IMG/VR virus record: IMGVR_UViG_3300048917_000432 | Location: 993-64,992 of that record | Source of the DNA: a virus | Lineage: Duplodnaviria > Caudoviricetes | Direction: 5' to 3' (one strand) | Length of the DNA: 64,000 bases | Part shown: positions 36,501 to 58,441 of the stretch, one piece after another | How the letters are laid out: every line of letters begins with the position of its first letter | Position numbering within the stretch: position 1 is the stretch's first letter | Program-made: the position numbers and the translations under genes | The notes under the pieces: model-generated | Database searches by the model: none | What the model was told of the DNA's origin: nothing | The model's input: only the letters and a program-made list of their open reading frames with translations

Positions 36501-36900
36501 CTACGGCAACGCCGCGTCCGGCGGTGCGGCGGTCTACATCCAATCCAACGGTTTCCTCACCCGGCACACCTCCAGTCAGCGGTACAAGACGGCGATCCGC
36601 GACCTGGGGTTGGCCCCGGAGTTCATGGACATCCGCACCGCCACCTGGCTGGACAAACCCAACCCGGCAACCATCTACCACCGGCTGTCCACCAAGGGCA
36701 GCAAACGGTTCACCGGGTTCCTGGCCGAGAACCTGCATCGCATCGGTTTGACCGATGCGGTCACCTATGACCGGATGGCTCGACCTGTCACCATTCAGAT
36801 GCCTGCCCTGCTGGCGCACACCGTGGCGTACGTCCAGTACCTGGTCCACCGGGTGGACGAGCTGTCCAAGAGGGTCGAGACCTTGGAGGGGGTGCTGTGA
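33535..36900 (+). CDS. Central tail fibre: FN3-like domains, GSITA repeats, CBM-like insert, C-terminal S74 chaperone
   Basis: LSWT..WQFKLR, LRWD..WFYRFIAFD..S; SSQRYKTAIRDL..GFLAENL..terminal coiled coil. Confidence 0.85.
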   Translation: MVTRNRLGPQGIGGPTVITYNAPSSSTPDPRIPGAPTALAGYGSVYLLEGGGYQSAAVLSWTPSPGDQDGNAMNLMTTEIWGKKVVTGSTFAQVGMVSAADDSVTIDGFKPKDTWQFKLRTLSESGKASSYSNVISIKMPYQDVPPPVPSVPVPTSRLGTVSLRWDGKASGGGAMPPDFDHIRVDRCADNLWITGVTTIDTLNVASIAVDAPLTVGATWFYRFIAFDNAGNPSGPSGSAQIKVDGVTGPDIPANLIDEGKLAKSITDDIDKALIDSAAAVGATENSSKVFLQPVMPTTGMTSGDMWYDSSHGNAPYRYGIPAGGTVPAWVSVRDDVLNKAFPNGVSLDKGFLEASVVQAKMISAGAVDAEYLIASKSITSASGVIGSLSAGDIKTGFLDSALIKAGSITAGKMVLGDTENLVSEPGFADPGPWVGQGAQADASDLPASGAGKVWRFLGTGLQQNAINTQVSPALPVQNAGKPEEIPADSFYAECWVRKTATSTTGTAALVMNVSRKGTTDTSVVFDSKVYKTTDPANVWVKLSGTALVPALGYDVALCVRAGADVNVGGQIQFSQVMMRRKLHGSLVVDGSITADQIKSNTITGDQIFGHSITAAEIDAKTIRADSFIAGSITSNSAVIGSLNASKITAGFMDAERITAGSITSDRLDAGHIEGSVIKGNSMHANRIQATTFTGDRINGRQIKAGHIIAGEITGNEIHGRTIKAGHIIAGEITGNEIHGRTIKAGHIIAGQITGYEIHGRTIKAGHIIAGQITGYEISATAINGKTITGATIRTAASGRRVQLSKGGLSFVTSSGTPLLSLATSNNAFYIRSGTSAAHFILDNSGFRLYNSSGKNTVNLSNSGGATFQGNVNASTFNGMTINSATNRGTISGGTISGIVHSGGSLSGTVTNRGVLSGGTMRSSGSTTRVQFNYDRVELIHGGTMSGILSPRADGAGIDLYAAGSSARVFFGTKDSLVVANSGTIYSTGIYGNAASGGAAVYIQSNGFLTRHTSSQRYKTAIRDLGLAPEFMDIRTATWLDKPNPATIYHRLSTKGSKRFTGFLAENLHRIGLTDAVTYDRMARPVTIQMPALLAHTVAYVQYLVHRVDELSKRVETLEGVL
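35641..35865 (+). repeat. Near-identical 60-nt tandem repeat (about 3.75 copies)
   Basis: aaggccggtcacatcattgccggc... at 35641, 35701, 35761, 35821. Confidence 0.95.
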
Positions 36901-44372: not shown

Positions 44373-45944
44373 GTGACCCAATCCATACCCCAAGAGCTCA
44401 TGGACGCGAATCTCGGCGACGAGGTCAAGCAGTTCCCACCCACCCTTGAGGTCGGTCGCACCGGCCTCAAGCGGTCCGGTGGCTACGTCCAGGACGAGTT
44501 CCTGCCCCAGCTGCGCGGCCGGAACGCGGTCAAGGTCTATCGGGAGATGGCCGAGAACTCTCCCGTGCTCGGCGCGTGGATCTACACGGTCACCCAGCTG
44601 CTGAGCCAGGTCGAATGGCGGGTGGAGCCGGCGTCGCAGAAGCCCGAGGACCGGCAGAACGCGGAGTTCGTCGAGCAGGCCATGGACGACATGGAGCACA
44701 GCTGGGGGGACTTCGTATCCGAGGCCTGCACGATGCTGATCTACGGCTGGTCCGTGCACGAGATCGTGTTCAAGCGCCGCCTGGGGTTGTGGGCCACCAA
44801 TCCGGCGCAGAAGTCCAAGTTCGACGACGGCAAGCTGTCCTGGCGCAAGTTCGCGATCCGGGGTCAGGAGTCGCTGCTGCGCTGGGTGTTCGACCGCAAC
44901 GGTGACGTGCTGGCCATGGTCCAGATGCCGGCGCCCTGGTACGAGAAGATCGTCCTGCCGATGCGCCGGTGCCTGCTGCTGCGGCCGCGGCTGAACAAGA
45001 ACTCCCCCGAGGGGCACTCACTGCTGCGCACCGCGTACCGGCCGTGGTTCATGATCAAGCGCTTCGAGGAGATCGAGGCGGTCGGCATCGAGCGCGACCT
45101 GACGGGTCTCCCGGTGGCCTACGTGCCGCCGAACGTGCTCAACCCCAAGCCCGGCTCCGACGACGCCAAGATGCTGGCCGCCGTGAAGCAGGCCGTGCAG
45201 GCGGTGCGGCGCAACGAGCAGGAGGGCCTGGTCTGGCCGCTGGCCTATGACGACGACCGCAACCTGCAGTACGACTTCAAGCTGCTCACCTCGGGCGGCT
45301 CGCGCCAGTTCAACATCGACGGGGTCATCCAGCGCTACGAGACCCGGATGCTGATGAGCGTGATGGCCGACTTCATCATGACCGGCCACGAGAACAACGG
45401 CTCGTCCTACGCCCTGCACACCGACAAGTCGGGCATCTTCCGGACCGGGGTGAACGGCATCGCCAAGGCGATCGCGGACCCGATCAACCGCAAGGCGATC
45501 CCGCAGCTGTTCAAGCTGAACGGGATGCAGCCGGCCGAGCTGCCCCACCTGGTGCCCAACGACGTCGACCCACCGGACCTGAACCAGCTGGCCGCGTTCA
45601 TCTCGTCCACGTCGTCCGCCGGTATGCAGTGGTTCCCCGACGGGGAACTCGAGAAGTTCATCCGCGATGCCGCCCGGCTGCCGCAGGTGGACGAGGACAT
45701 CCTGCAGGCCCGCAGCGATCAGCAGCGGCAGTCGGTCATCCTCGCCTCGGCCCAGCAGAAGATGGAGGCGATGCAGATGGACATGCAGGCCGCGCAGGCC
45801 CAGCAGGGTCTGGTCCAGGGCGAGCAGCAAATCGCCGGCACCGAGCAGAACCAGCAGTTGCAGGCCCAGCAGGCCCAGCAGGAGGCGGCTCAACCGCCGG
45901 CCAAGCCGGGCGCCAAGATGCCCGCAGCCAAGGGAGGCAAGTGA
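44373..45944 (+). CDS. Portal protein (DUF935/Mu gp29-like) with Gln-rich tail
   Basis: Follows TerL; YGWSVHEI, NKNSPEGHSLLR, AVGIERDLTGLPV. Confidence 0.88.
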   Translation: MTQSIPQELMDANLGDEVKQFPPTLEVGRTGLKRSGGYVQDEFLPQLRGRNAVKVYREMAENSPVLGAWIYTVTQLLSQVEWRVEPASQKPEDRQNAEFVEQAMDDMEHSWGDFVSEACTMLIYGWSVHEIVFKRRLGLWATNPAQKSKFDDGKLSWRKFAIRGQESLLRWVFDRNGDVLAMVQMPAPWYEKIVLPMRRCLLLRPRLNKNSPEGHSLLRTAYRPWFMIKRFEEIEAVGIERDLTGLPVAYVPPNVLNPKPGSDDAKMLAAVKQAVQAVRRNEQEGLVWPLAYDDDRNLQYDFKLLTSGGSRQFNIDGVIQRYETRMLMSVMADFIMTGHENNGSSYALHTDKSGIFRTGVNGIAKAIADPINRKAIPQLFKLNGMQPAELPHLVPNDVDPPDLNQLAAFISSTSSAGMQWFPDGELEKFIRDAARLPQVDEDILQARSDQQRQSVILASAQQKMEAMQMDMQAAQAQQGLVQGEQQIAGTEQNQQLQAQQAQQEAAQPPAKPGAKMPAAKGGK

Positions 45945-48900
45945 TGCCGCTGAAGGAAGGCCGTTCGGCCAAGGCCGTCAGTGCCAACATCCGACTGCTG
46001 CGCCGTGAGGGCCGGCCGGAGAAACAAGCCGTCGCCATTGCGCTGGACCAGAAGAGGAAGCCCCCGGTGGCGAAGTTCGTCGACGCGCCGGGGTTCAACG
46101 CGCACGCGGCCGAGGTCATCTACAAGGCGATGACAGCGATGGACAGCGAATCCGCGCTGATCTTCGGTCGGATCCTGGTCGCGGAAGGGCTGCACTACGA
46201 CCTGATCGCGCACGGGGCCGAGATCAACAAGGCTGCGGGCGAGCTGATCGCCAAGCGGGCCGACGCGCTGCGCCGGCAGTTCTCCCGCACCGCGGTGGCC
46301 AAGAGCCGGGCCGGTGAGGATGCCAGCTACGAGATCCGCTGCCTGGCCGAACTGTCGAAGGCCTGGGACGATCGTGCGTTCTCCACCGGAGCCCGCAGCC
46401 AGCGGGCCAAGGAGCAGCACCGTGGCGCCGGCGGCCGGTTCGTCACCGAGCACACCCGCATCACGACCGACAACGGGCGCACCCCGGCAGCCCCGCGGGC
46501 CGCCGAGAAGATGGACGGCACTCCCCAGGCCTCGCACCTGTCCGGCGCCGACCAGGCGCACTACCAGCAGGCGTACGGGCAGATCCGCGACATGCTCGCG
46601 CCGTACCGCAACCGCGACCTCAACGCGGTGCTGCACCTGAATGTGCAGAACAAGAAGGGCGAGGAGCGCACCGAGATCCTGGACGTCAAGAACGGTCAGG
46701 CGGTGGGGGTGGGCGACGCGCTGCACTCCGAGGACCGGATCCAGACTGCCGCCGTGTCGGTGCACCCCAGGGCCGAGTCCTCCGCCTCGGCCGCGTTCGA
46801 CGCGGTGTCCGCGCTGGGTGGGCAGACGTCCGGCGCCCTCCGCGCGGGTGGGGCCGCGGCGAACATCGCCACCGGGGCGGCGCCCTCCGTCGTGCGCGAG
46901 TACAACGACCGTGGGGTCGGCCTGAAGGGCAACGAGGCCTACTCCGGCAGCACCCGTGCCATGAACCGGGTGGCCGACGCGACCGGGCTGTTGCAGGACA
47001 GCCTGGGCGACATCGCGCCGCGCAAGCTCAAGTACGCCCTGGCCGTGGCCAACCATGTGGGGCAGTTCGGCCCGGAGGCCCAGAAGGTGATCGGGCCGGC
47101 CGCGGATCGTGCCGCGTATCGCTACCGGGGCACCGAGCGCTCGCTGGACACCAAGCTGATCGGCGCGCTCGATCAGCTACGCCGCGATCCCCTGGTCACC
47201 AACAGCCGGCAGTTCACCGAGGCGGCCATCGGGGGGATCGAGCGGGAAGAGGGCTGGGACAGCGGCGCGGTCCTGACCTACTTCCACAACCAGCTGCCCA
47301 ACCCCGACCTGAACGAGTTGCAGCGCAAGTCCGGAGTGATCCCGCCGTCCGAGGGGATCATCATCAACAGCAAGGGCCAGGTCGCACACCAGTCCTCCGG
47401 CTATGCCGACGACTGGTACCTGCCGTTCAACCTCAAGCACCTGACCGGCCTCAAGGGCGGCCAGTACATCCGCACCCGTAGTTTCGGCGGGCCGACCACC
47501 GAGGACATCTACACCGGGCTGATGTCCGGGGCCAAGTCGATGACCGTGATCAGCCACAACGGGATCTACACCGTGGACTTCGACCGGAATCTGCGTGGCG
47601 GCCGCCGGTTCAACGACAAGGCCGCTCGGATGGTCGGTCGTTACGGCAGCCTGCTGGACGCGGTGCGCAATGGGTCGGTGACGGCCGGCGGCAACGTCAG
47701 CCGGTCCCGGATGAACGAGCTGCGGGCCAGTGCTCTGGAGATCGAGCCCGACGAGAACTCGACGCAGTTCAAGACCCTGGTCCGGCAGGCGGAGGCCGAA
47801 GAGCGGCGTAACCCGCAGCTCTCCCAGGTCGAGAAGGACAAGGCCGCGCAGGACTGGCTGGCCACGGCGGCAGGCAGAAACCGCACCCGGGACGGCAACG
47901 TCCAGCGCGGCGATCAGTTGGTCGGCGAAGTATTGGACCGGCGGGCCAACGAGGAGTTCCTGGCCCACAAGGAGGAAGCGGCCCGGTGGGGTGGACCGCC
48001 GCTGAGAAGTCTTTCCCAGATGCGGGCGCAGATCGGGGCCGAATATGCCGCCGCCCCCACCAAGGAAGCCCAGGTCAGGTTGCTGGCCGAGATGATGGGC
48101 AACAAGCAGTCCGACCGGTTCAACGCCCACATGACGCAGGTGGACGAGGCCAACAAGGATCGGCTGGAGCCACTGCGGCTCAACGGCCGCGGCTATCACA
48201 CCGCGCTGCTGGCGCTGAAGGAGCAGTTCCCGTACTACATCGCCGATGTGCGTTACCACGAGTGGCGCGATGAGACCGGCCGCGGCGAGGACACCACTCA
48301 CGAGCGGGCCCAGGACACGGGCTACGTGATGCCCAAGCACAACCGGCCGCAGGAAGCCCAGGCGGGCTACTTCGACGACATGATCAACGGCACCGGCAAG
48401 GTGCGGGCCGACTCCATCCGGCACCAGAACCGCCGGGTGCATCCCGATCCGCTCCCGTTCAAGGAACGTCCGGCGGCTGTCGCCGGCGACCTCGACCTCC
48501 GTGCTACCGCGGCTGGTGGCACGGAGGCCAGGTCGAACGTGCCCGATGCCGCGCGGGCCGCGGATCTGGCGATGATGCATGACCTGCAGACCCAGACCCA
48601 CTTCGCTGAAGGGGCCAAACTGCTGGGAGCCAACGCTGAAGGCGTTCCGGCTGAGGTCGACTTCGGGGGCGGCGAGATTCGGCAGGAGATTAACGACCCG
48701 CGGTTCCCCAACCCCGCGCTCCGGGAGTTCTACAGCCGGACCCCGGCCCAACTGGAGGCGCTGCCGCCGGATGAGTTGACCAGCCTGCTCGATCAGGTGG
48801 TGGGGCTGGCCCAAGGCCGGGAGAAGGTGGTCGCGGTCAACCCCCAGGTAGCGCACCAGTTCGTCAACCGGGGACGGGTGCAGCCCGCCAAGCCGCTGCC

Positions 48901-49390
48901 CGAGGCTCCCATGGCGAGACTGAACGAGCTGGACCTCGACCATGTGTTCGCCGACGGCGGTGCGCTCTACGACCCGATGCGACCGCCGCCGCACCCCGAT
49001 CGCATCCGGACCGAGTACGAGGGTCACACCGGCATCAAGGCGCTGGGCCTGCCCCCCATCGATGCTCCGGACGCCGATTTCGCCGACGCGGTCAGGCGGG
49101 TCGGAACGGCACAGCTGGAGCGGGCCCAGGAGCTGGTCCAGGCCCGGGATGCCGGTGGTGGGGCGATGGTCTTCGACTACCGCAAGCTGGACCGGGACAC
49201 CAATGCGCTCTCCCGCGCCACCCAGCTCCGCCGCCGGTACCACCTGGCGCTGGCCCAGCACCCCGTGCAGGCGCAGGAGCCGGACGTGCGGGACCAGATC
49301 CTTGTCGCCAACAAGGACGATCTGGATGCGGTCCTACGCAACATGAACACTCAATATCCCGATGACAAGCGGCGCGTGATCGAGGGATGA
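45944..49390 (+). CDS. Large putative capsid-internal protein (1148 aa)
   Basis: MPLKEG..QAVAIAL start, ELSK|AW..HRGAGGRF, degenerate JAB-like segment; between portal and protease. Confidence 0.65.
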   Translation: MPLKEGRSAKAVSANIRLLRREGRPEKQAVAIALDQKRKPPVAKFVDAPGFNAHAAEVIYKAMTAMDSESALIFGRILVAEGLHYDLIAHGAEINKAAGELIAKRADALRRQFSRTAVAKSRAGEDASYEIRCLAELSKAWDDRAFSTGARSQRAKEQHRGAGGRFVTEHTRITTDNGRTPAAPRAAEKMDGTPQASHLSGADQAHYQQAYGQIRDMLAPYRNRDLNAVLHLNVQNKKGEERTEILDVKNGQAVGVGDALHSEDRIQTAAVSVHPRAESSASAAFDAVSALGGQTSGALRAGGAAANIATGAAPSVVREYNDRGVGLKGNEAYSGSTRAMNRVADATGLLQDSLGDIAPRKLKYALAVANHVGQFGPEAQKVIGPAADRAAYRYRGTERSLDTKLIGALDQLRRDPLVTNSRQFTEAAIGGIEREEGWDSGAVLTYFHNQLPNPDLNELQRKSGVIPPSEGIIINSKGQVAHQSSGYADDWYLPFNLKHLTGLKGGQYIRTRSFGGPTTEDIYTGLMSGAKSMTVISHNGIYTVDFDRNLRGGRRFNDKAARMVGRYGSLLDAVRNGSVTAGGNVSRSRMNELRASALEIEPDENSTQFKTLVRQAEAEERRNPQLSQVEKDKAAQDWLATAAGRNRTRDGNVQRGDQLVGEVLDRRANEEFLAHKEEAARWGGPPLRSLSQMRAQIGAEYAAAPTKEAQVRLLAEMMGNKQSDRFNAHMTQVDEANKDRLEPLRLNGRGYHTALLALKEQFPYYIADVRYHEWRDETGRGEDTTHERAQDTGYVMPKHNRPQEAQAGYFDDMINGTGKVRADSIRHQNRRVHPDPLPFKERPAAVAGDLDLRATAAGGTEARSNVPDAARAADLAMMHDLQTQTHFAEGAKLLGANAEGVPAEVDFGGGEIRQEINDPRFPNPALREFYSRTPAQLEALPPDELTSLLDQVVGLAQGREKVVAVNPQVAHQFVNRGRVQPAKPLPEAPMARLNELDLDHVFADGGALYDPMRPPPHPDRIRTEYEGHTGIKALGLPPIDAPDADFADAVRRVGTAQLERAQELVQARDAGGGAMVFDYRKLDRDTNALSRATQLRRRYHLALAQHPVQAQEPDVRDQILVANKDDLDAVLRNMNTQYPDDKRRVIEG

Positions 49391-51027
49391 CCACCGCGGC
49401 CGTCGACCACGATCTGGCCTCGTCGGTGCTGGCCTCATTCGGCGTGGTGCGATCCGATCTGCAAGCGGCCAGCCCCCGGGTGGGGCGCGTCGAGACCCAG
49501 GCCTGGGCGGCGTTCGCCTGGCACGCGCATGCCTTCACCAAGCTGCTGGCGGCCGACCTGGCCCCGGAGTACGGCGAGATGCGGGCCACTGCGGTCGCCG
49601 GCGCGCTGACCGAGGCGATCAACCGCACCGCGGCCCAGGCCCTGGCCGAAGCCGTGGACATCCAGCTGGCCCGGGGCTGGGTGCCCGAGGTCGCCTGGCA
49701 GCGGGCCCTGGTCGGCTACGGCCTGAACTCCCGGGGAATGCACGCCCACCTGGCCACCGCGCTGTCCGGTGACCCGAAGACGGCCGCTGCGGTCGTCCCC
49801 CCGGCGGCCCGCGCGCTCACCGAGCGGCTGCTGGTGGGCTACGCCCAGGATGTGGCCAGGGACGGGATCACCGCGGCGCAGCAACTGTCCACCGAGGAAA
49901 TCTCCAAGGACTACGACCCCAAGGAGCCTCGGGACGAGTCCGGCCGGTGGACCCGTTCCGCGCGTTCTGCGCGAGTCGCGGAGAAGCCCACCGAGAAGGA
50001 TGCGGTGGATGAGGTCCTGGCGGGCGTGACCGAAGAAGTGCCGGACCGATACGCAGCGGCCAGGCCGGATCGATATGCCTCGGCCACGCCCGATCGGTAC
50101 GCGTCGGCCACGCCCGACCGGTATGCAACCGCACAGGCTGACCGCTACGCAACTGCACGGGCCGACCGCTATGCCGCGGCCAAGCCGGATCGCTATGCCA
50201 ACGCGACGGCCAAGGAGCGGAAGCAGCGGCGTCGCACCCTGATCATGGTCATGCCCGGGGTCAAGGACGAGGAGGCCACCGAGCAGGCGATGGAGGCCGA
50301 GGCCACCGGGCATGGCGGGTTCTTCCTGCCCATGTCGGACCTGGGGGTCTACGTTTCGGGGGCGGCCTACATGAACGCCGGCGAGAACGTGCAGGGGCTG
50401 CTCAACTTCTCCGTGATCCGGGACTTCTACAACTCGGTCGAGGACACCAACAACCCCATCGAGCTGCGGCACGCGCATGACCCGTGGGACATGGCGTCGG
50501 GCATCGAGATCGGTGACGCCGACTGGGACGACCTGGTTGACGACGCGCTGGAGCTGCACGACGAGGTGATGGAAGACCCGGTGTTCGCCGCGTCCCAGCT
50601 GAGCGGCCGGGAGCTCGAGCGGATCGGCGAGACCGCGGGGTACCCGTTGGCTTCGGCGGAGAAGATCAAGCGGCGGATCGCTGACGATTTCGACGCTCAC
50701 CAGGCCGGTATCGACTTCGACCCGAGCTTGCTGGACGCGCTGGCCGACCATGTGGTGTGGCGTAACGCCGACGTGCTGGGCGATGAGGGGGCCAGGTTCT
50801 CCGAGCGGCTGTCCGAGCTGGGCCTGGAGGAGGAGCTGGACGAGGACCCGCCCGAGGTGCTGGCGTTCACCGGCGGCCTGGCCGACGACGACGACAGCGC
50901 GAACATGAGCGGGCAATACGTGGCCCGCAGCGTGCTCTACCGCTCTGCGCTGGGGACGTTCCGGACCTCAACACCCCACGGCGTGATCGGGATGCGGGAA
51001 GTGATCATGCATCCGGATCGCGTGTAG
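49387..51027 (+). CDS. Putative head protein (MuF-like N-terminus, octapeptide repeats, acidic C-domain)
   Basis: GYGLNSR; EISK|DYDPKEPRDESGRW; 7 x DRYA repeats. Confidence 0.6.
   Translation: MTTAAVDHDLASSVLASFGVVRSDLQAASPRVGRVETQAWAAFAWHAHAFTKLLAADLAPEYGEMRATAVAGALTEAINRTAAQALAEAVDIQLARGWVPEVAWQRALVGYGLNSRGMHAHLATALSGDPKTAAAVVPPAARALTERLLVGYAQDVARDGITAAQQLSTEEISKDYDPKEPRDESGRWTRSARSARVAEKPTEKDAVDEVLAGVTEEVPDRYAAARPDRYASATPDRYASATPDRYATAQADRYATARADRYAAAKPDRYANATAKERKQRRRTLIMVMPGVKDEEATEQAMEAEATGHGGFFLPMSDLGVYVSGAAYMNAGENVQGLLNFSVIRDFYNSVEDTNNPIELRHAHDPWDMASGIEIGDADWDDLVDDALELHDEVMEDPVFAASQLSGRELERIGETAGYPLASAEKIKRRIADDFDAHQAGIDFDPSLLDALADHVVWRNADVLGDEGARFSERLSELGLEEELDEDPPEVLAFTGGLADDDDSANMSGQYVARSVLYRSALGTFRTSTPHGVIGMREVIMHPDRV
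50041..50208 (+). repeat. Seven 24-nt repeats encoding (P/A)DRYA-x-A-x
   Basis: Strict 8-aa period with diverged synonymous codons. Confidence 0.9.
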
Positions 51028-51049
51028 CGGCCAGCCCGACACTAGGGAT

Positions 51050-53728
51050 ATGACCCAGACCGCTCAGCCGCCCGTGGACCCGGTGTTCGCGGGCATCGCC
51101 AAGGCGCTCTACGGCGACGTCGATCCCCGCGAGGTGTTGGCCAAGTTCAGCCCCGGCAGCTCCGATCTGCACATGGACGGGCCGGTCGATCCGAAGAAGC
51201 AGGCCGCGCGGGAGAAGAAGCTGGCCGCGATCGGCATGGGCAGCACCGCTGTGGCCGGTGTCGGCGGTCTGCACGCGCTGTCCGCGACCCGCAAAGAGAT
51301 CCTGCACTCGTTCGCCGACAAGGGGTCGGAAAAGGCCGCCGCCAAGCTGAAGACGATCAACGACAAGGCAGCCACGAAGACCGCCGCGCGCGCCGCGCGG
51401 GTCGCTAGTGCGAAGGGCCCGACCGGCAAGGTGCTGCGCACCATCGCTGCCCACCCGCGACAGGCTGCCGCAGCCGCCGGGGCGGGGTGGGTCGGTCTGC
51501 ACGGTGTGGAGCTGGCCGCCGACTCACTGGCCATGCGGGCCAACGCCAAGGCCTACCGCAACGCCCAGCGCAAGCAGCAGGGGGTGTCCAAGGCGTTCCG
51601 GCTCAAGCCGCTGAACGTGGTGGGGGCCAAGCTGCCCAGCCTGCGGGCCAAGCGCCCGGCGGCCAACCCGCTGCCGAAGACACCGACTGCCCAGGGCGCG
51701 CTGTTCAAGCCGGTCGTCAAGAAGTCTGCCGCTGTGGTCATCATCGCCAAGGCCGGCAAGCACGCGTGGGAACCCATCAAGGTTGCCCCGGTGACGGGAT
51801 CGACGTTCAACTCCAACACTGGCCAGGGCGCCGGCAACCTGGGCGGCCAACAGGCTTACCAGGGCAAGCACCGTGCCCCGCCCGGTGCGACACCGCCGCC
51901 CCAGCCGGGCGCGACCCCGCCGCCCAAGCCGAACGCGACCCCGCCGACGCCGAAGCCCGGCGGCACCCCGGCGGGTGTCGACGGCACCGCACCCAAGGCG
52001 GGTCGGCTCATCCCCAAGCTCAAGAAGCTGGGCAAGCCCGGCTTGATCGCGGGCGGCCTGGTCGGCGCCGGAGTGGCCGGCGCTGCTGTCGGGGGCCGCA
52101 GGAAGAACGACGACCTGTCCAAGGGCGTCATCGGCGGCGTCAGGCGCACCGTGACGAACGCGGAGAAGGCCACCGGGCACGCCAGCAACGCAGCCAGGGA
52201 GGCGGCCGAGGCCACCGCCAAGATCAACGACCTGATCCCCAGCAAGAAGACCCTGAAGCGGGTCGCGCTGGGGACGGCCGGGGTCGGCTCGTTCGGCGTG
52301 GGCGGAGCCTATGGCGCCGGGAGGGCCGCCGGGCAGAAGAAGGAGCGCCGTCGGCAAGCCCGGCAGGAGCGGCCGATCCTGGTCCCGTCGAGCGTGACCA
52401 AGTCGGTGACCTGGACCGGCGCGATCGCCAAGGTCGACGCCGACAAGCGCCAGGTGTTCGGCTGGGCCTCCGTGTCGGCGATCAACGGCGAGCAGGTGAT
52501 CGATCTGCAGGGCGACATCGTGCCGATCGAGGAGACCGAGAAGGCCGCCTATCGCTACGTGATGGAGTCGCGCAAGGGCGGCGACATGCACCGCCGGGTG
52601 GCCAAGGCCGCCGACGAGCCGCTGCACACCGCGGACCTGATCGAGTCGTTCGTGGTCACCGGCGAGAAGCTGGAGAAGATGGGCCTGGCCCCCAACTCGC
52701 TGCCGCACGGCTGGTGGGTCGGGTTCAAGGTGAACGACGACGAGCAGTGGGGCCTGGTCAAGTCCGGCCACCGGGCCGGGTTCTCCATCCACGGCGCCGG
52801 CGTGCGTACCCCGGCCGGCATCTCCAAGGCCGATGCGCCCAAGGTGCTGAAGCTGCTGCCCGGCAAGCACCGCGGGCTGGCCGAGGCCAGCGCTTCCGGG
52901 GTGGGGCAGCACCGCGCCGCCGCTGACCGCAACAACTGGCGCAAGATCCAGCGGATCGGTGAGCGGTCCGCCCAGTGGGTGCCCGTAGGCCCCAAGCATC
53001 TGGCCAAGGCCGACCGGCGGTTCAAGACCGAGGGCGGCCAGCACCGGCAGGAGAAGACGCTGGCGCGGGCCAAGGCCGACCCCTGGGTGGTGCCGCTGCA
53101 TGCGAAGAAGCGCACCCCTGCCGACAAGCTGAAGCTGAAGATGATCGCGCACGGCGGGCTGATCAACCGGGTCGTCGACTACACCCCCAACGTCCTGCAG
53201 ACGGTGGGGACGCAGGTCTACCCGTTGCTCAAGGCCGACGTGGACAAGTCCTTCGACGATGTGAAGGACACCCTGTCCGATGCCAAGCGCACGGCGGGCA
53301 AGAAGGTGCGCCGGATCAAGGGCTCGCTGAAGACCCGCACCGACCAGGCGCTGCACCCGCCGAGCGTCAAGCTCAAGCCGGTCGACTCCTCTGCCGTGTC
53401 GGAGATGGGCTATCAGCCCCAGACCCGGCGGCTGGCCTACCAGCTGCGCAGCAACCCGGGCACCCAGTACACCTACAAGGTGCCGGTCACCGAGGGGGTG
53501 TCGGCGCTAAGCGCCGAGTCGAAGGGTCGGCACTACGCCACCAAGGTGGCGCGCAAGGCCAAGCGATCGGACAAGGTGACCCCGGTCGACCGGGCTCGGC
53601 TGTTCATCAAGCCCGACGTGAGCAAGGCCCTCAAACCCGCCGGGACGCCAGCCGGCAAGTCGTCTGCCCCCTCGGGCGCACGCCCTGGCGCTCCGACGGG
53701 CTCCATTGGAAAGGCTAGGACTCCATGA
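51050..53728 (+). CDS. Capsid maturation protease polyprotein (XkdF-like core + KTSC + Gly/Ala-rich modules)
   Basis: RQVFGWASV..DLQGD..EKAA..DMH..ESFV..GWWVGFKV..W..V..G..GFSIHG; KTSC-like VDSSAVSEMGYQPQTRRL. Confidence 0.85.
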   Translation: MTQTAQPPVDPVFAGIAKALYGDVDPREVLAKFSPGSSDLHMDGPVDPKKQAAREKKLAAIGMGSTAVAGVGGLHALSATRKEILHSFADKGSEKAAAKLKTINDKAATKTAARAARVASAKGPTGKVLRTIAAHPRQAAAAAGAGWVGLHGVELAADSLAMRANAKAYRNAQRKQQGVSKAFRLKPLNVVGAKLPSLRAKRPAANPLPKTPTAQGALFKPVVKKSAAVVIIAKAGKHAWEPIKVAPVTGSTFNSNTGQGAGNLGGQQAYQGKHRAPPGATPPPQPGATPPPKPNATPPTPKPGGTPAGVDGTAPKAGRLIPKLKKLGKPGLIAGGLVGAGVAGAAVGGRRKNDDLSKGVIGGVRRTVTNAEKATGHASNAAREAAEATAKINDLIPSKKTLKRVALGTAGVGSFGVGGAYGAGRAAGQKKERRRQARQERPILVPSSVTKSVTWTGAIAKVDADKRQVFGWASVSAINGEQVIDLQGDIVPIEETEKAAYRYVMESRKGGDMHRRVAKAADEPLHTADLIESFVVTGEKLEKMGLAPNSLPHGWWVGFKVNDDEQWGLVKSGHRAGFSIHGAGVRTPAGISKADAPKVLKLLPGKHRGLAEASASGVGQHRAAADRNNWRKIQRIGERSAQWVPVGPKHLAKADRRFKTEGGQHRQEKTLARAKADPWVVPLHAKKRTPADKLKLKMIAHGGLINRVVDYTPNVLQTVGTQVYPLLKADVDKSFDDVKDTLSDAKRTAGKKVRRIKGSLKTRTDQALHPPSVKLKPVDSSAVSEMGYQPQTRRLAYQLRSNPGTQYTYKVPVTEGVSALSAESKGRHYATKVARKAKRSDKVTPVDRARLFIKPDVSKALKPAGTPAGKSSAPSGARPGAPTGSIGKARTP

Positions 53729-55305
53729 CGGTTTCCGCGTTCGGTGTCGACGACTACCGCATCTCCAAGGCCGACGACAAGAGGCGGCGTCGCCAGGATG
53801 CGGCGCTCCTCGCCGCCGGCACTGCCGGCACCGCTGCCGCCTATGGCGGTGATCATGTGGAGCGTGGGGCCAGGGTGTTGCATGCGGAGCATCACGACAA
53901 GGCGATGGAGCACAGCGTCCGGGCGATGGGGAGTCGCGCGCGGGGAAAGTCGGACGCGGTCCACGCGGCGCTGCGAGACGAGCATGTCGCGGCCGCCAAG
54001 ACCGCCAGGAAATGGGCGGTAGGTGCCAAGCGGGTGAAGTACGGCGGGCTGGGGCTGGCCGCGGGCGCTCTGACCCCCCTGGCCATCCGGGGTATCAGGG
54101 ACCAGAAGGAAAAGGTCGGCAAGGCGCTCGGCGACCCCCCGAAGGCCAGACACGCCCAGGAGCGGAAGAAGGCCGGTCTGGGTGCCGCTGGTGTCGGCTA
54201 CCTGGCGGCCACCCGCGCCAAGGACGTTTCCCCGCACGCCGCCGAGATGGTGACCCGCTCGGCAAAGAAGATCGGCGAGGCGGAACGAGCGACCCGGATC
54301 GCGCGCAAGGTCAAGGTGATGGACCAGGTCGCCGGCAAGGGCGGCGCCGGGCTGGTCGCCGCCGGGCTGGGGCTGGCCACCGAGGGCTACATCAACGACC
54401 TGCGGCACCGGAAGGTGTTCGAGCACGCCAAGAAGAAGACGTTCGGCAAGGCGTACACCCCGGGCGAGATCAGCTATCACGACACCCAGTCGCAGATCCA
54501 TTCGCGCAAGGCCTCGTCGGCCGAGAAGCGGAAGCGCGCCGGCGACACAACGATCGCCGCGGGGTTGGTCGGTGGGGGCCTCGGGTATCACTACGCGCCT
54601 CAAGCTGCCCGGGCGGCCGGGCGGGTGGCCGACAAGACCGAGAGCCACGGCAAGGTGGCCAATACGCTCCGGTCCGCACCCAAGCTGCGCCGTGGCGCGC
54701 TGGGTGCCGGTCTTGGTGCGGCCACAGTGGGGGCCGGTCTGCTGGCCGAGGGGCACATCACCGCCGCTCGCCACCGGGGCAAGAAGACTGCTGAGCTGCG
54801 GGCCGTGCAGGAGGCCCGTCAGCGCCGTAACGCTGCCGAGCTGAACAAGTCGGCGTTCTTCGTCGAGAAGGCGTTCGACTCCGAGCGTCAGCGGCACAAG
54901 CGGGCCGATCTGTACGAAGGGGCCGCTGCGGGTGGCGCGGTCGCGGCCGGTACCGGCGCCGGAGTGCTGGCCGGCAAGTCGGTGAAGCTCAAGGTGAAGG
55001 CCGCGGGGAAGACGAAGGCTGCGGCCAACAACCGAGCGGAGGCCTCGGAGGCTCTGCGCCGGATGAACCTGGACCCCAAGGATCCGATCCGGTTGGTCCG
55101 CAACAAGACGAATGTCGAGGCCACTGCGCGCAGGCTGCGATCGGCCGCCGGACAGGATGCCGTGGCTCGGAAGGCGCGCATCGCCAGTCGTGCCCTCAGC
55201 GGCGGGGCCAAGGGCGCGGCCCTGGGCGCGGCCGGGCTGGGCGCTGCTGCCTATGGCGTCCACCGATCGGACCGCAAGGGGTCCGGCCGTTCCTACGCGT
55301 ACTGA
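53725..55305 (+). CDS. Putative capsid-internal polyprotein, four helical-hairpin modules
   Basis: SAFGVDDYRISK leader; paired Gly/Ala-rich hydrophobic helices; Lys/Arg-rich. Confidence 0.7.
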   Translation: MTVSAFGVDDYRISKADDKRRRRQDAALLAAGTAGTAAAYGGDHVERGARVLHAEHHDKAMEHSVRAMGSRARGKSDAVHAALRDEHVAAAKTARKWAVGAKRVKYGGLGLAAGALTPLAIRGIRDQKEKVGKALGDPPKARHAQERKKAGLGAAGVGYLAATRAKDVSPHAAEMVTRSAKKIGEAERATRIARKVKVMDQVAGKGGAGLVAAGLGLATEGYINDLRHRKVFEHAKKKTFGKAYTPGEISYHDTQSQIHSRKASSAEKRKRAGDTTIAAGLVGGGLGYHYAPQAARAAGRVADKTESHGKVANTLRSAPKLRRGALGAGLGAATVGAGLLAEGHITAARHRGKKTAELRAVQEARQRRNAAELNKSAFFVEKAFDSERQRHKRADLYEGAAAGGAVAAGTGAGVLAGKSVKLKVKAAGKTKAAANNRAEASEALRRMNLDPKDPIRLVRNKTNVEATARRLRSAAGQDAVARKARIASRALSGGAKGAALGAAGLGAAAYGVHRSDRKGSGRSYAY

Positions 55306-55319
55306 GAAGGGTTACAGCT

Positions 55320-56141
55320 ATGGGAATCTCAGCATTCGGCGTAGACGACAGCCGGATCTCCAAAGCCAGAGGCGACAAGGAGAAGGCTGCCGCGGCCGCA
55401 ACCGGTGTGGGCTCGGTTGCAGCGAGCGGTGTCGCCGTCGGGCATGTCGCCCAGGCTGCCAATCATTCGACCAACGCGAAGTCGCACGTCCGGGTCGTTG
55501 GACGTTTGGAGCAGCGCGCGGAGGACATGCGCGAGGCCTACCGGAAGAGCCCGAGAACCAAGGCCCACGGAGACCAGGCGGCCAGCCACATCCGGCAATA
55601 CCGGGACTCGGCCGGGGTGCACATGGATCACGCGCTCAGCGAGCGCGCTGCGGGAGTCAAGGCCGCCGGGAAGGCGATCCGCGCCGGGAAGGTCGCCGGA
55701 GTCACCGCGCTCGCGGCCGGTGGCCTGGCCGGCACCGGGGCGTACCGGTCACGCAAGAACGTTGCCAAATCGAGAGAGGGCTCGGAAATGAACTACTCAG
55801 CGTTCGGCGTCCAGGACGACCGGATTTCCAAGGCGGACGACGAGCCGCGACCCAAGGCCAGCGCGGGGCGGATCGCCACCGGGGCGCTGGTGCCGTCATG
55901 GCACGGCGCGATCGCCGGCAGGAAGGGTCACAAGCTGCGCGCCATCGGGAACGAGTGGGGCGGCGGCCTCCTTGGCGGTGCCGCCGGCCAGGGGGCCGGC
56001 GCCCTCGCCACCGCGGCCACGAGGGGCAAGGTCAAGGGCCTCAGAATCGGCGGAGGCGTCACGGGCAGCCTCGCCGGCGGTGCCACGGGCACTGTCCGCG
56101 CGCAGAAGAAGGGCCACCTGAAGCGCGAGGACAACAGCTGA
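55320..56141 (+). CDS. Putative capsid-internal polyprotein, two modules
   Basis: SAFGVDDSRISK leader and internal MNYSAFGVQDDRISK. Confidence 0.7.
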   Translation: MGISAFGVDDSRISKARGDKEKAAAAATGVGSVAASGVAVGHVAQAANHSTNAKSHVRVVGRLEQRAEDMREAYRKSPRTKAHGDQAASHIRQYRDSAGVHMDHALSERAAGVKAAGKAIRAGKVAGVTALAAGGLAGTGAYRSRKNVAKSREGSEMNYSAFGVQDDRISKADDEPRPKASAGRIATGALVPSWHGAIAGRKGHKLRAIGNEWGGGLLGGAAGQGAGALATAATRGKVKGLRIGGGVTGSLAGGATGTVRAQKKGHLKREDNS

Positions 56142-56190
56142 TCCTGCGTGTTGCGCGTATCCCGAGACTTAGAACCAAGGAGGCGAACAC

Positions 56191-57012
56191 ATGCCGCAGG
56201 CCGTACAGATCGTGAAGGACATGGAGATCGATGAGATCTCCCTGGTCGATCGAGCAGCCAACCAATCAGCGGCCATCGTGATCGCCAAGAGGGCCGACCA
56301 GGAGGATGGCATGCCCGATTACACGGATCAGGACGGCAACGAGCTGGACTTGAGCCAGTTCGAAGAGGGTGACGTCCTCGAGGGCGAAGATGGTCAGCTC
56401 TATGAGGTGACCTACGGCGACGACGATGACGAGGACGAGGACGACGACTACGAGGACTCCGAAGTCGGGGAACTCGTCGGAGTCGGCAAGTCGGCCTTCG
56501 GCGCCAGCTACGACGCCGGGGTGATCGCCGGCATCCGCGACGAGTTGTCCAAGGCGGTCAGCCAGGACGACCAGAACGCGGTGCTGAGCAAGGCTCTCGG
56601 CACGCTGGCCAAGCGGGCCGAGGAGGCTGAGTCCCGACTGCAGCGCGCCGAGGAAGTGGCCAAGGCCGAGCGCGATCTGCGCCTGGAGCGGGAGTACATC
56701 TCCAAGGCCGCCGAGTACAACGTCCCGGTCGACCCGACCGAGCTCGGCCCGGTGCTCATGCGGGCCACCGAATCGCTGTCCTACGAGGACTGCGCGGTGT
56801 TGCACAAGGCCCTGAGCTCCGCCGGCGAGATGCTGTACACCGAGGCGGGTTACGACGGCCGGGCCCTTGCTGAGGACCCGATGGCCGAGATCGAAGCCCT
56901 GGTCGAGGGCCAGGTCGCCAAGGGCGACGTGTCCAAGGCCGGCGCCCTGACCGCCTTCTTCGATGACAACCCGGGCGCGTACGACGCGTACCGGGCCGAG
57001 CGGACCCGCTGA
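56191..57012 (+). CDS. Scaffolding protein with protease-like N-terminal strand
   Basis: RBS AGGAGG; IDEISLVDRAANQ; acidic linker; coiled coil; precedes cement and capsid. Confidence 0.75.
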   Translation: MPQAVQIVKDMEIDEISLVDRAANQSAAIVIAKRADQEDGMPDYTDQDGNELDLSQFEEGDVLEGEDGQLYEVTYGDDDDEDEDDDYEDSEVGELVGVGKSAFGASYDAGVIAGIRDELSKAVSQDDQNAVLSKALGTLAKRAEEAESRLQRAEEVAKAERDLRLEREYISKAAEYNVPVDPTELGPVLMRATESLSYEDCAVLHKALSSAGEMLYTEAGYDGRALAEDPMAEIEALVEGQVAKGDVSKAGALTAFFDDNPGAYDAYRAERTR

Positions 57013-57022
57013 GGAGCGACTG

Positions 57023-57424
57023 ATGGCCTACGACGAGACCCAGCGGCGAATCTCGCTGGATGCCGACGCTTCGTTGGCGATCCGGACGGGCGTGCCGGGC
57101 ATGCCCGGTTCGGCCGACCCGAACGGCGGCAAGCAGTACTACTTCGTGAAGGTGACCGGTGAGCACCAGGCCGGCCTGGTCTCCGCGGCCGCTGGAGACT
57201 CGGTCGGGGTGATGCAGAACAAGCCCCAGATCCTCGGTGAGGCGGCCACGGTCTGCATCAGCGGGGTCAGCCTCGTGGTGGCCGGCACCGCTCTCGTCGC
57301 CGGTGATCCGGTCGCAGCCGGCGCCGACGGCCGCGGCACCAAGTGGACCACCGGCACCCAGGTGGGAACCGTTATTCAGGGCGCAGGGGTCGGACAGCTC
57401 GCTGTCGTCCTTGTGCGGATCTAA
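57023..57424 (+). CDS. Capsid cement/decoration protein (DUF2190-like)
   Basis: YYFVKV..VGVMQNKP..GEAATV..GVSLVVAG..GDPV. Confidence 0.75.
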   Translation: MAYDETQRRISLDADASLAIRTGVPGMPGSADPNGGKQYYFVKVTGEHQAGLVSAAAGDSVGVMQNKPQILGEAATVCISGVSLVVAGTALVAGDPVAAGADGRGTKWTTGTQVGTVIQGAGVGQLAVVLVRI

Positions 57425-57439
57425 GAGAGGACCGGACCA

Positions 57440-58441
57440 GTGCCTATGAACCCGGGAAGTCCCGACGTCCACATCGACGGTCCTCTGACCAACGTGTCGG
57501 TCGCCTACTTCCAGGACACGAGCGACTTCATCGCGGACAAGGTGTTCCCTTCGCTCCCGGTGGACAAGCGCTCGGATGTGTTCTGGAAGTACTCCAAGGC
57601 CGACTGGCGACGGGCTGACGCGCAGAAGCGCGCCCCCGGCACCGAGTCGGCGGGAATCGGCTGGTCCAACCAGACCGACAACTTCTACGCCGAGGTGTAT
57701 GCGGCGCACGTCGACATCGACGCGCAGACGCGGGCCAACGCGGACTCCAACTGGAACCTGGACTCCGACGCGACGCGGCTGGTGACCTCCCACCTGCTGC
57801 GCGGCAAGGACCAGCAGTGGGCCAACGAGTACTTCAAGTCCGGCGTCTGGGGCACCGAGCTCACCGGCGTGGCCTCCGCGCCGACCGGGAGCCAGTTCCT
57901 CCAGTGGAACCAGACGGCGTCAGACCCGCTGCTGAACTCCACCAACTGGCTGACCGACTTCCGCCTGCTGACCACCAAGGCGATCAACTTCGCGGTGCTC
58001 GGTGTGGACGTCTGGAAGGCGCTGAAGAACCACCCGGCGATCCTGGACCGGATCAAGTACACCCAGAAGGGCGTCATCACCGAAGAGCTGGTGGCCGAGT
58101 TCCTGGGCATCCCCAAGCTCTACATCGCCTACTCCAGCCAGGCCAACGGCCCCGCGATCAACGACGCCAAGTCCCAGGACGCGGCCGCGACCTACACCTG
58201 GACGATCGACACCAAGTCGGCGCTGCTCGGTTACGCCCCCAGCCGGCCCAGCCTGCTGGAGCCGTCCGCGGGCTACACGTTCAACTGGCGCGGCTACGGC
58301 GCCGGCAACAAGTCCGGCCTGACGATGAGCAGCTTCTACGACCCGAAGATCAAGGCGGACCGGATCGAGGGTGAAGCTGCCTACGATCTGAAGCTGGTCA
58401 GCCGCGACTGTGGGGTGTTCCTCAAGAACGCTGTCGTCTGA
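57440..58441 (+). CDS. Major capsid protein
   Basis: DVHIDGPLTNVSVAY..FIADKVFP.LPV..RAPGTES; 333 aa after scaffold and cement. Confidence 0.88.
   Translation: MPMNPGSPDVHIDGPLTNVSVAYFQDTSDFIADKVFPSLPVDKRSDVFWKYSKADWRRADAQKRAPGTESAGIGWSNQTDNFYAEVYAAHVDIDAQTRANADSNWNLDSDATRLVTSHLLRGKDQQWANEYFKSGVWGTELTGVASAPTGSQFLQWNQTASDPLLNSTNWLTDFRLLTTKAINFAVLGVDVWKALKNHPAILDRIKYTQKGVITEELVAEFLGIPKLYIAYSSQANGPAINDAKSQDAAATYTWTIDTKSALLGYAPSRPSLLEPSAGYTFNWRGYGAGNKSGLTMSSFYDPKIKADRIEGEAAYDLKLVSRDCGVFLKNAVV

Follow-up and report, generated by a model that had tools for sequence, protein, structure and literature searches.

What the genes between portal and major capsid protein of a tailed virus may encode: a head block around an XkdF-type protease, with recurrent lysine motifs, a shared SAFGV leader and basic glycine-zipper-like modules

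The question raised by this locus is what the six open reading frames (ORFs) between the portal and major capsid protein genes of a tailed virus contribute to its head, and why a lysine with a hydrophobic residue two places before it and a small residue after it recurs at domain boundaries in several of them. The DNA analysed (the window) is a stretch of 64,000 nucleotides from an uncultured member of the Caudoviricetes (Duplodnaviria), positions 993 to 64,992 of IMG/VR record IMGVR_UViG_3300048917_000432, and the products of the six ORFs are here named gpA to gpF. A preliminary description had taken all six for polyproteins, cut at these lysines into small cationic proteins that are released inside the capsid and then ejected. 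We favour, with a probability of roughly 0.6 and on the strength of sequence comparisons, the reading that the block is a capsid-assembly and cargo module around an XkdF-type (HK97-like) protease in gpC, and that it works in three steps, set out below. The label of polyprotein fits gpC, gpD and gpE only, as gpA and gpB have no enrichment of the motif and one conserved site each. The features of the block are as follows.

44373..45944, + strand: portal protein of the Mu / P23-45 type, the upstream limit of the block (PF06074, E=8.5e-31; phrog_113, E=3.7e-79)
45944..49390, + strand: gpA, a head-module protein of 1148 aa, fold not recognised (phrog_2423 matches its first 40 aa only)
49387..51027, + strand: gpB, 546 aa, a MuF-related minor head protein, assigned through its counterparts in the related contigs L018 and L024
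51050..53728, + strand: gpC, a chain of 892 aa with embedded protease (motif counts, conserved sites)
52403..52828, + strand: XkdF-type prohead serine protease domain, gpC aa 452-593 (PF14550)
53387..53551, + strand: KTSC-like domain, gpC aa 780-834 (PF13619, E=0.0026, below cut-off; PDB 4rgi, E=0.006; kept in relatives)
53725..55305, + strand: gpD, 526 aa, leader and four basic two-hairpin modules (sites, charge, alignment)
55320..56141, + strand: gpE, 273 aa, two leaders and two modules (the second, E2, has free-gene relatives)
56191..57012, + strand: gpF, the scaffold, 273 aa (motif enrichment; EISLVDRAAN N-terminus)
57023..57424, + strand: small ORF between scaffold and major capsid protein, kept in all relatives, likely a decoration protein by its position only
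57440..58441, + strand: major capsid protein of the lambda gpE type, without delta domain, the downstream limit of the block (phrog_1005, E=1.1e-75)

The presence of an XkdF-type protease, as first described, is borne out: gpC aa 459-585 match PF14550 (Peptidase_S78_2) with 55.4 bits against a cut-off of 24. The domain is bounded by VTK451↓S and ISK593↓A (the arrow marks a proposed cut), and φ-x-K, φ being V, I, L or F, bounds it in every relative. These relatives were found by their capsid protein (L008-L013, with 71-80% capsid identity; L018, with 55%; and L005, a 1.8-kb ENA contig) or through module similarity (L020 and L024), and the context of database matches was taken from IMG/VR loci. 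Candidate catalytic residues are His514 (in GGDMH), invariant in 8 of 8 sequences, and Ser579 (in GFSIHG), the Ser of G(F/Y)SI being present in all seven XkdF-type sequences. The protease gene lies between those for portal and major capsid protein, and the order is the same in L008-L013, L018, L020 and L024. We infer that the gpC domain cuts head proteins.

The candidate for its densest substrate is gpF, which consists of an EISLVDRAAN strand and acidic domain (aa 1-100), then K100↓SAFGA and a helical part with seven more φ-x-K-small sites. The motif is enriched in every scaffold homolog tested (7-10 observed, 0.5-1.5 expected), including ValentiniPuff gp54 and Salgado gp24, and in both of these phages the XkdF domain is encoded elsewhere in the genome, apart from the gene for strand plus scaffold. 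In protease-scaffold fusions the segment next after the protease domain is matched by the N-terminus of gpF (56191-56320); a strand of the EISLVDRAAN type comes after the GFSI serine motif in a single chain in psiM2 ORF12, and HK97 gp4 contains one as REISVCTFPAN. In the window that strand is encoded by the scaffold gene, some 3.4 kb downstream from the protease domain, and the last strand of the protease appears to sit on another gene. The earlier view of gpF as a further chain of cargo finds no support, gpF being the scaffold, which would be degraded.

With regard to the genome of Arthrobacter phage Salgado (L002), gene 17, annotated 'capsid maturation protease', has the MuF motif CxxC...HPGCRC and no XkdF match, and the product of gene 18, an 'RNA ligase' by annotation, combines a pair of HxT motifs of the kind typical for 2H phosphoesterases with a C-terminal XkdF domain after LTK↓A. 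To judge from these motifs, both public annotations look wrong.

All of the example sites given in the preliminary description are present in the translations: K139 in gpA (ELSK↓A), K174 in gpB (EISK↓D), K181, K358, K451, K593, K733 and K859 in gpC, K15, K133, K242, K375 and K382 in gpD, K15, K150 and K171 in gpE, and K100, K121, K134, K172 and others in gpF. Counts of the pattern [VILF]xK[ASG] were compared with chance expectation from shuffles within each protein. There are 14 observed against 5.4 expected in gpC (p~0.002), 8 against 0.6 in gpF (p<0.001), 5 against 2.9 in gpD, 3 against 1.4 in gpE, 4 against 2.4 in gpA and 0 against 0.7 in gpB, giving 34 against 13.4 for the six ORFs, and 22 against about 20 for the 26 other ORFs of the contig. 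As these counts by ORF make clear, the bulk enrichment is due to gpC and gpF only, so that the contrast with non-head proteins, which are at expectation, stands for those two, is marginal for gpD and gpE together, and is missing for gpA and gpB. In gpD and gpE all eight lysines with a hydrophobic P3 are followed by a small residue, and none by a non-small one, for which 6.5 were expected. For gpF and gpC there is mostly no enrichment of other registers (φ-K-x-small, φ-x-x-K-small) or of patterns with Glu, Asp or Gln at P1, and two Arg patterns are weakly enriched in gpF (3 against 0.8 and 4 against 0.8). Nor is φ-x-E-small enriched, as it should be for a post-Glu protease of the S77 (gp21) type.

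The only non-head ORF above expectation for the motif encodes a 1121-aa tail protein (33535-36900), with 7 φ-x-K-small sites against 3.2 expected (p=0.036), possibly by chance.

The position of the sites is best seen in the relatives, which have a variable number of small basic Gly/Ala-rich ORFs between protease and scaffold, either starting M-x(1-3)-SAFGV(E/D)...φ-x-K or fused behind φ-x-K↓SAFGV. By BLAST, gpE aa 157-268 corresponds to the whole of the free proteins L012_E (60% identity) and L011_E2 (51%), from genes of 104-108 aa, and in L012 the protease protein continues at its C-terminus into the counterpart of gpD aa 136-526 (modules 2-4). In L013 the module that follows K358 of gpC is a free gene (MSSFGPGEAPISK↓K...), and in L008 and L010 it is found in the gpD-like ORF. 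The protease ORF of L005, L020 and L024 comes to its end within a few residues of the point that corresponds to GISK593↓A of the window, and leader-bearing modules follow it; in L018 the stop is six residues after RVQK↓A. The order of genes in L024 is as in the window (large protein, MuF, protease), and the L020 scaffold has EISLVDRGAN and 7 sites.

Throughout these rearrangements the modules keep φ-x-K at their edges, although the sequence around it is unrelated or displaced by 0-4 residues. The edge before the protease reads SVTK↓S, LFGK↓S, PVGK↓S, PVSK↓SELAD or PVSK↓VGD across the window and its relatives and that after it GISK↓A, TVAK↓M, GISK↓M, AVSK↓S or TVSK↓M; φ-x-K likewise precedes AFRLxP, the M2 module and the last module, and is also kept close to the gpC end. 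Of the gpC sites, K181, K451, K593 and K859 are shared with L008 and L011-L013 although the sequences on either side have diverged, and K859 is found in L010 as well; in gpD, K242 and K382 do not vary in any of seven aligned sequences, which average 45% identity. As modules pass from one ORF to another, where a gene starts or stops tells one little in this block, and this is of importance for the annotation of actinophage-like genomes. The suggestion that the sites are protease junctions has gained from this comparison, in that they are kept amid divergent flanks, coincide with gene boundaries of relatives, surround the protease and are dense in the scaffold, all of which makes junctions the probable interpretation.

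A second recurrent element is a short leader, M-x-x-SAFGV(D/Q)DxRISK↓A, found at gpD aa 1-15, gpE aa 1-15 and gpE aa 157-171, with degenerate copies inside gpD (K↓SAFFVEK↓A) and in the scaffold gpF (GK↓SAFGA...ELSK↓A); several head-module proteins have it in common, as with the capsid-targeting sequence (CTS) of T4. A word-based homolog search for gpE gave two matches only. A family profile made from gpE aa 157-273 and six relatives, searched against 1.84 billion cluster representatives, matched 233 clusters at E<=1e-3 and 164 at E<=1e-10, with proteins of 89 to 1021 aa; the representatives are <50% identical and are not phylogenetically independent. Leaders were counted in the 150 representatives listed from the 233 clusters, 61 of which start with a leader, and there are 53 further full internal copies, making 114. 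A Lys is present 5-14 residues after the leader Ser in 111 of the 114, and around these 111 lysines P3 is I, V, F or L in 109 (background 17%), P2 is Ser in 71 (6%) and P1' is Ala in 66 (16%). The 53 internal leaders include 14 that directly follow a K, mostly as part of φ-x-K, 25 that have a Met within four residues and 12 with a K 2-6 residues upstream. Members without SAFGV have variants (SYWGV..., DPFEVSK↓) or only φ-x-K↓A, and in all 123 module cores with sufficient sequence ahead of them φ-x-K occurs 16-34 residues before the conserved His of the core, where 64.7 were expected from shuffles of the same stretches.

Sixteen family members carry the tag at the C-terminus, as ..KKNDST-SAFGVDHGY-stop (L020:1559-2821, L020:2775-3800, P0026, P0028, P0050, P0052, P0087, P0091, P0101, P0141 and others). 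These copies lack the φ-S-K part, which suggests that the tag would work as a docking peptide independently of cleavage. We considered stop-codon recoding or truncation of contigs as the origin of the SAFGVDHGY ends and rejected both, as L020 has two successive ORFs with this ending, one closed by TGA and the other by TAA, and each followed by an ORF in a different frame. One member, P0100 (348 aa), has a scaffold-like start (..LTDLEIDEVSLVDRPA..), an acidic stretch and ELVGK↓A, followed directly by an E2 module, and so has the protease strand and a cargo module in one chain.

With regard to the modules themselves, the lengths of 118, 109, 133 and 144 aa first given for gpD are correct, and these pieces are indeed basic with two Gly/Ala-rich stretches (pI, the isoelectric point, 10.4-11.1; net charge +11 to +18; uncharged stretches of 14-19 aa). 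Similar modules do occur outside gpD, in the N-terminal part of gpC and in gpE, and over all modules the net charge is +10 to +23 and the pI 10.4-11.5, with paired uncharged GxxxG-rich stretches of 14-20 aa. In gpD the leader MTVSAFGVDDYRISK15↓A is followed by modules at 16-133, 134-242, 243-375 and 383-526, the last of them after the mini-leader K375↓SAFFVEK382↓A. In gpC a leader (PVFAGIAK18↓A) and three basic Gly/Ala-rich modules, ending at K181, K358 and K451, precede the protease, and basic linker pieces (K653, K728/K733), the KTSC-like domain and a tail (K859, K888) follow it.

In gpE there is a leader (MGISAFGVDDSRISK15↓A), module 1, VAK150↓S, an internal leader MNYSAFGVQDDRISK171↓A (55788-55832) and E2 (55833-56138). 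The internal leader has its own Met157, with the Shine-Dalgarno (SD)-like GAGAGGG 7 nt upstream of the ATG (55765-55790), the true gpE start having GAAGGG, and E2 could therefore arise by internal initiation without cleavage. It would seem that gpE arose recently, two genes having fused in frame.

An AF2 model of whole gpD (7 sequences) is all-helical, with a pLDDT of 43.7 that is too low for fold search; at this low confidence several helix breaks, longer ones included, fall at 1-14, 135-138, 241-253 and 377-386, which are the proposed junctions. The E2 model, from a 62-sequence alignment, is better (pLDDT 78, pTM 0.62), with helices at 26-43, 49-77 and 89-107 and an unstructured leader. The glycine-zipper families PF13441, PF13488 and PF05433 gave sub-threshold matches in 9, 8 and 4 of the 62 members (best E 1e-4 to 8e-3), and the E2 module of the window has no glycine-zipper Pfam match. 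Nothing of use for gpD or gpA came from ESM Atlas, and PDB sequence searches with gpA and gpC gave nothing beyond the weak KTSC match. The modules appear to be basic helical hairpins of a glycine-zipper-like kind; that they are membrane-active and ejected is a guess.

The favoured reading may now be given in its three steps. In the first, the protease probably cuts after Lys in (V/I/L/F)-x-K↓(A/S/G), as in HK97 F-N-K103↓S104. It would free its own 142-aa domain (K451↓S ... K593↓A), split off the acidic N-terminal piece of gpF at GK100↓SAFG and reduce the rest of gpF to peptides of about 5-40 aa able to exit the shell, and it would convert the gpC, gpD and gpE chains to about nine basic helical Gly/Ala-rich proteins of 93-177 aa and a few other basic pieces. 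In the second, the leader of 12-16 aa, M-x-x-SAFGV(D/E)xxx(I/V)-S-K↓A, which opens free modules and joins fused ones, may serve both as a cleavage cassette and as a tag for docking in the procapsid interior. Docking is proposed because the scaffold has its own copy (K↓SAFGA), because the C-terminal tags of relatives lack the Lys site and because the ..GTFGA.. strand of HK97 binds the P-domain. In the third, the trimmed basic glycine-zipper proteins might stay with the DNA and leave with it, and might help to neutralise its charge, or insert in the host membrane, or both.

Several observations weigh against this reading. The Pfam match is to S78_2 and not to S78, the family of HK97 gp4, and a MAFFT alignment of HK97 gp4 with XkdF domains is poor; in the literature we found no determined specificity for any XkdF-type (S78_2) protease. 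Motif enrichment is missing or marginal in four of the six chains, as described. K519 and K571 of gpC match the motif inside the folded protease core, and therefore the motif alone does not define a cut site. The Met present 1-4 residues upstream of 25 of the 53 internal leaders makes internal initiation possible for these, and the family profile included leader columns and so favours leader-bearing matches. No cultured relatives carrying the modules were found. In the case of membrane activity, Foldseek searches of PDB and BFVD with the E2 model gave only E>1, with weak holin and AhlB rows, and a wide VIA-align search gave a best Z of 5.7, to small two-helix membrane hairpin subunits, which for a helical hairpin is non-diagnostic; the hydropathy of the Gly/Ala segments, 1.2-1.8, is borderline for a membrane helix.

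It is for this last step that the best surviving alternative arises, and we regard it as a real possibility, at well under even odds. The processing would be the same, and the modules would be internal core or DNA-condensing proteins, like the T4 internal proteins or adenovirus VII and mu, or else a transient inner scaffold, with Gly/Ala helices that pack proteins against each other and no action on membranes. The high charge and pI of the modules fit this well, as do the borderline hydropathy and the failure to find a significant match to a pore-former or membrane protein, or any glycine-zipper match for the window protein. Against it are the paired uncharged GxxxG-rich stretches present in every module, the weak glycine-zipper matches in 9 of 62 members, and the several small two-helix membrane subunits among the top structural neighbours, weak as these are.

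A bolder extension of the favoured reading, drawn by analogy and in our view unlikely, is that SAFGV is a portable capsid-loading peptide that copies the shell-binding strand of the scaffold and works at either end of a chain, that a cut after the Lys downstream of it would set the cargo free within the head, and that the cargo consists of glycine-zipper pore formers which are ejected with the DNA and form the membrane channel in a host of the Gram-positive type. The role of membrane channel is usually assigned to the tape measure protein alone.

Rather more doubtful still is the proposal that leader and φ-x-K form a docking or assembly motif that is never cut, the Lys contacting acidic scaffold or DNA and the chains working at full length, with the free and fused forms being the outcome of ordinary gene fusion and internal translation starts. 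The Met kept in 25 of 53 internal leaders, with an SD-like site as well in the window copy, is what this would lead one to expect, and the C-terminal SAFGVDHGY tails are conserved even without a Lys site. However modules lacking a SAFGV leader, and the protease domain itself, are bounded by φ-x-K too, and in 14 cases the leader comes straight after K and has no Met; the eight sites of the 273-aa scaffold fit disposal of the scaffold by a protease of this fold, and HK97 cuts such a site (PMC10275583). The last proposal, that φ-x-K-A arises by chance or from Ala/Lys-rich amphipathic helices, which naturally hold AKA-like strings, and has no specific function, is very improbable, for although gpA, gpB, gpD and gpE are singly within chance, it is already contradicted for gpC, gpF and the leaders by the restriction of enrichment to one register and to Lys (Arg weakly, in gpF only), the non-head ORFs at expectation, the 123 of 123 cores against 65 expected, the P3, P2 and P1' preferences across clusters of <50% identity, and the position kept amid diverging flanks.

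In the case of gpA and gpB the data are fewer. The gpA site ELSK139↓A (K codon 46358-46360) has a counterpart, EVVSK↓A, in L018, and a cut at this candidate site would remove an N-terminal piece of about 139 aa; for the further matches in gpA, K61, K96 and K120, chance is the default reading. The gpB site EISK174↓D (K codon 49906-49908) precedes YDPxExRDxxGRWT, and φ-x-K is kept at this spot in seven contigs (window, L004, L008, L011, L012, L013 and L018). Following the gpB site (49906-49960), ..(Y)DPxExRDxxG(R/K/Q)(W/F) is found in all seven, and about 35 residues after its site gpA has HRGAGGRF (46400-46450), where L018 has DPRTGQF; judged by these likenesses, the post-site motifs could be a shared short element of head-internal proteins.

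Assignment of gpB to the MuF group is through its homologs, as the L018 homolog has the MuF zinc motif HPNCRC and the syntenic gene of L024 matches PF04233; the window gpB itself has no Pfam match, PF04233 (MuF / SPP1 gp7) included. At 50040-50211 it contains about 7 tandem copies of a 24-nt (8-aa) unit, PDRYA(S/T)A, in place of which its homologs have other short repeats with aromatic residues (PDLFG in L018, DPFAAA in L008). For gpA there was no match in PDB or the Atlas. Its first 40 aa (45944-46063) match phrog_2423, a family of stand-alone phage proteins of about 50 aa, and the module chains P0039 and P0052 start with a possibly similar MPYQS.AQ..FMHA.HPE.

The block is part of a linear IMG/VR viral contig of 64,992 b, about 85% complete and with about 68% GC, and the order of genes on the + strand is r1t-type holin, large terminase, portal of the Mu/P23-45 type, gpA-gpF, the small conserved ORF and the lambda-gpE-type major capsid protein. 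The small ORF has counterparts in Salgado gp25 and ValentiniPuff gp55 and is not enriched for the motif. The major capsid protein has one [VILF]xK[ASG] against 1.2 expected and starts directly with the fold, the scaffold being a separate gene, so that there is no N-terminal delta substrate of the HK97 type. Its nearest cultured counterparts, at about 40% identity, are those of Microbacterium phage ValentiniPuff and the Arthrobacter Laroye-like phages. We found no Pfam family match for gpA, gpB, gpD or gpE, no match for the 14-kb block in a near-DNA search of 50,697 phage records, and no prophage relatives when contigs of the GTDB representative genomes were scanned with the module alignment.

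The new elements are the proposed Lys rule of the XkdF/HK97 type, the SAFGV tag, which is very widely conserved, and the putative glycine-zipper cargo. Should the cuts prove real, XkdF-type head proteases, which are common in phages and in tailed viruses of archaea, would have their first substrate rule, and it would be tied to the one known HK97 site. The tag of 12-16 aa is a candidate capsid-loading signal that could serve for packaging foreign proteins into HK97-fold shells. The module family, of at least 233 clusters from metagenomes, is unannotated and absent from Pfam and PHROGs, and among its members may be internal or ejection proteins of siphovirus-related phages, a group of proteins that is poorly known.

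With regard to known systems, the precedents first put forward, T4 gp21 and phiKZ gp175, hold as head proteases that cut at short motifs, but both cut after Glu, and HK97 gp4/gp5 is closer. The HK97 maturation cleavage is at K103/S104, and just before it K92-G97 (KQGTFG) adds a strand to the P-domain sheet of the capsid protein (PMC10275583). The context of that cut, T-F-N-K↓S-L-G-S, fits φ-x-K↓small, and the 103-aa delta domain holds four such motifs; the junctions of the window likewise have Lys at P1, a hydrophobic P3 and a small P1'. The ..GTFGA.. strand of HK97 lies seven residues before the cut, a layout (xFGx, 6-9 residues, φ-x-K↓small) like that of the leader here, which we offer as a lead only. 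HK97 differs in having an S78 protease and a delta domain, where the window has S78_2 (XkdF) and a separate scaffold, and it is without cargo chains or a shared leader, whereas the window protease is embedded in an 892-aa chain.

In T4 the CTS of IPI-III and Alt, cut by gp21, is like the leader of the window in being short, N-terminal, on small basic head proteins and ended by the protease motif, and, as proposed for the window, the same enzyme cuts the scaffold core to small peptides. T4 differs in its S77 protease, its (L/I)-x-E cut and its cargo as separate genes, while in the window family leaders are found inside chains as well and, in some relatives, at the C-terminus, and the genome is of about 65 kb and siphovirus-related, not that of a T4-like myovirus. 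The adenovirus protease AVP trims the basic core proteins pVII and pX and the membrane-lytic pVI and destroys the L1-52/55K scaffold, at a short consensus; this is an unrelated cysteine protease of a eukaryotic virus with another motif, and the likeness is one of analogy only. In encapsulins a short terminal cargo peptide docks onto the inner face of an HK97-fold shell and may be at either terminus; these peptides are uncleaved, and the likeness to the C-terminal SAFGVDHGY tails is by description and not by sequence comparison.

In phiKZ (gp175) and SPN3US (gp245) a single head protease cuts at a short motif in many proteins of the head interior, taking off propeptides (PMC5694885, PMC10052503). 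These are giant phages with an S77-type protease, an (A/S/G)-x-E motif and large unrelated substrates, unlike the repeated small modules found here. The polyvalent phage proteins of Iyer et al. 2017 (PMC5512222) are, like gpC and gpD, multi-module chains beside portal and MuF genes, with modules that are shuffled, and are predicted to be packaged and processed. They have enzymatic effector domains and other peptidases, whereas the modules of the window appear to be small, non-enzymatic, basic helical hairpins.

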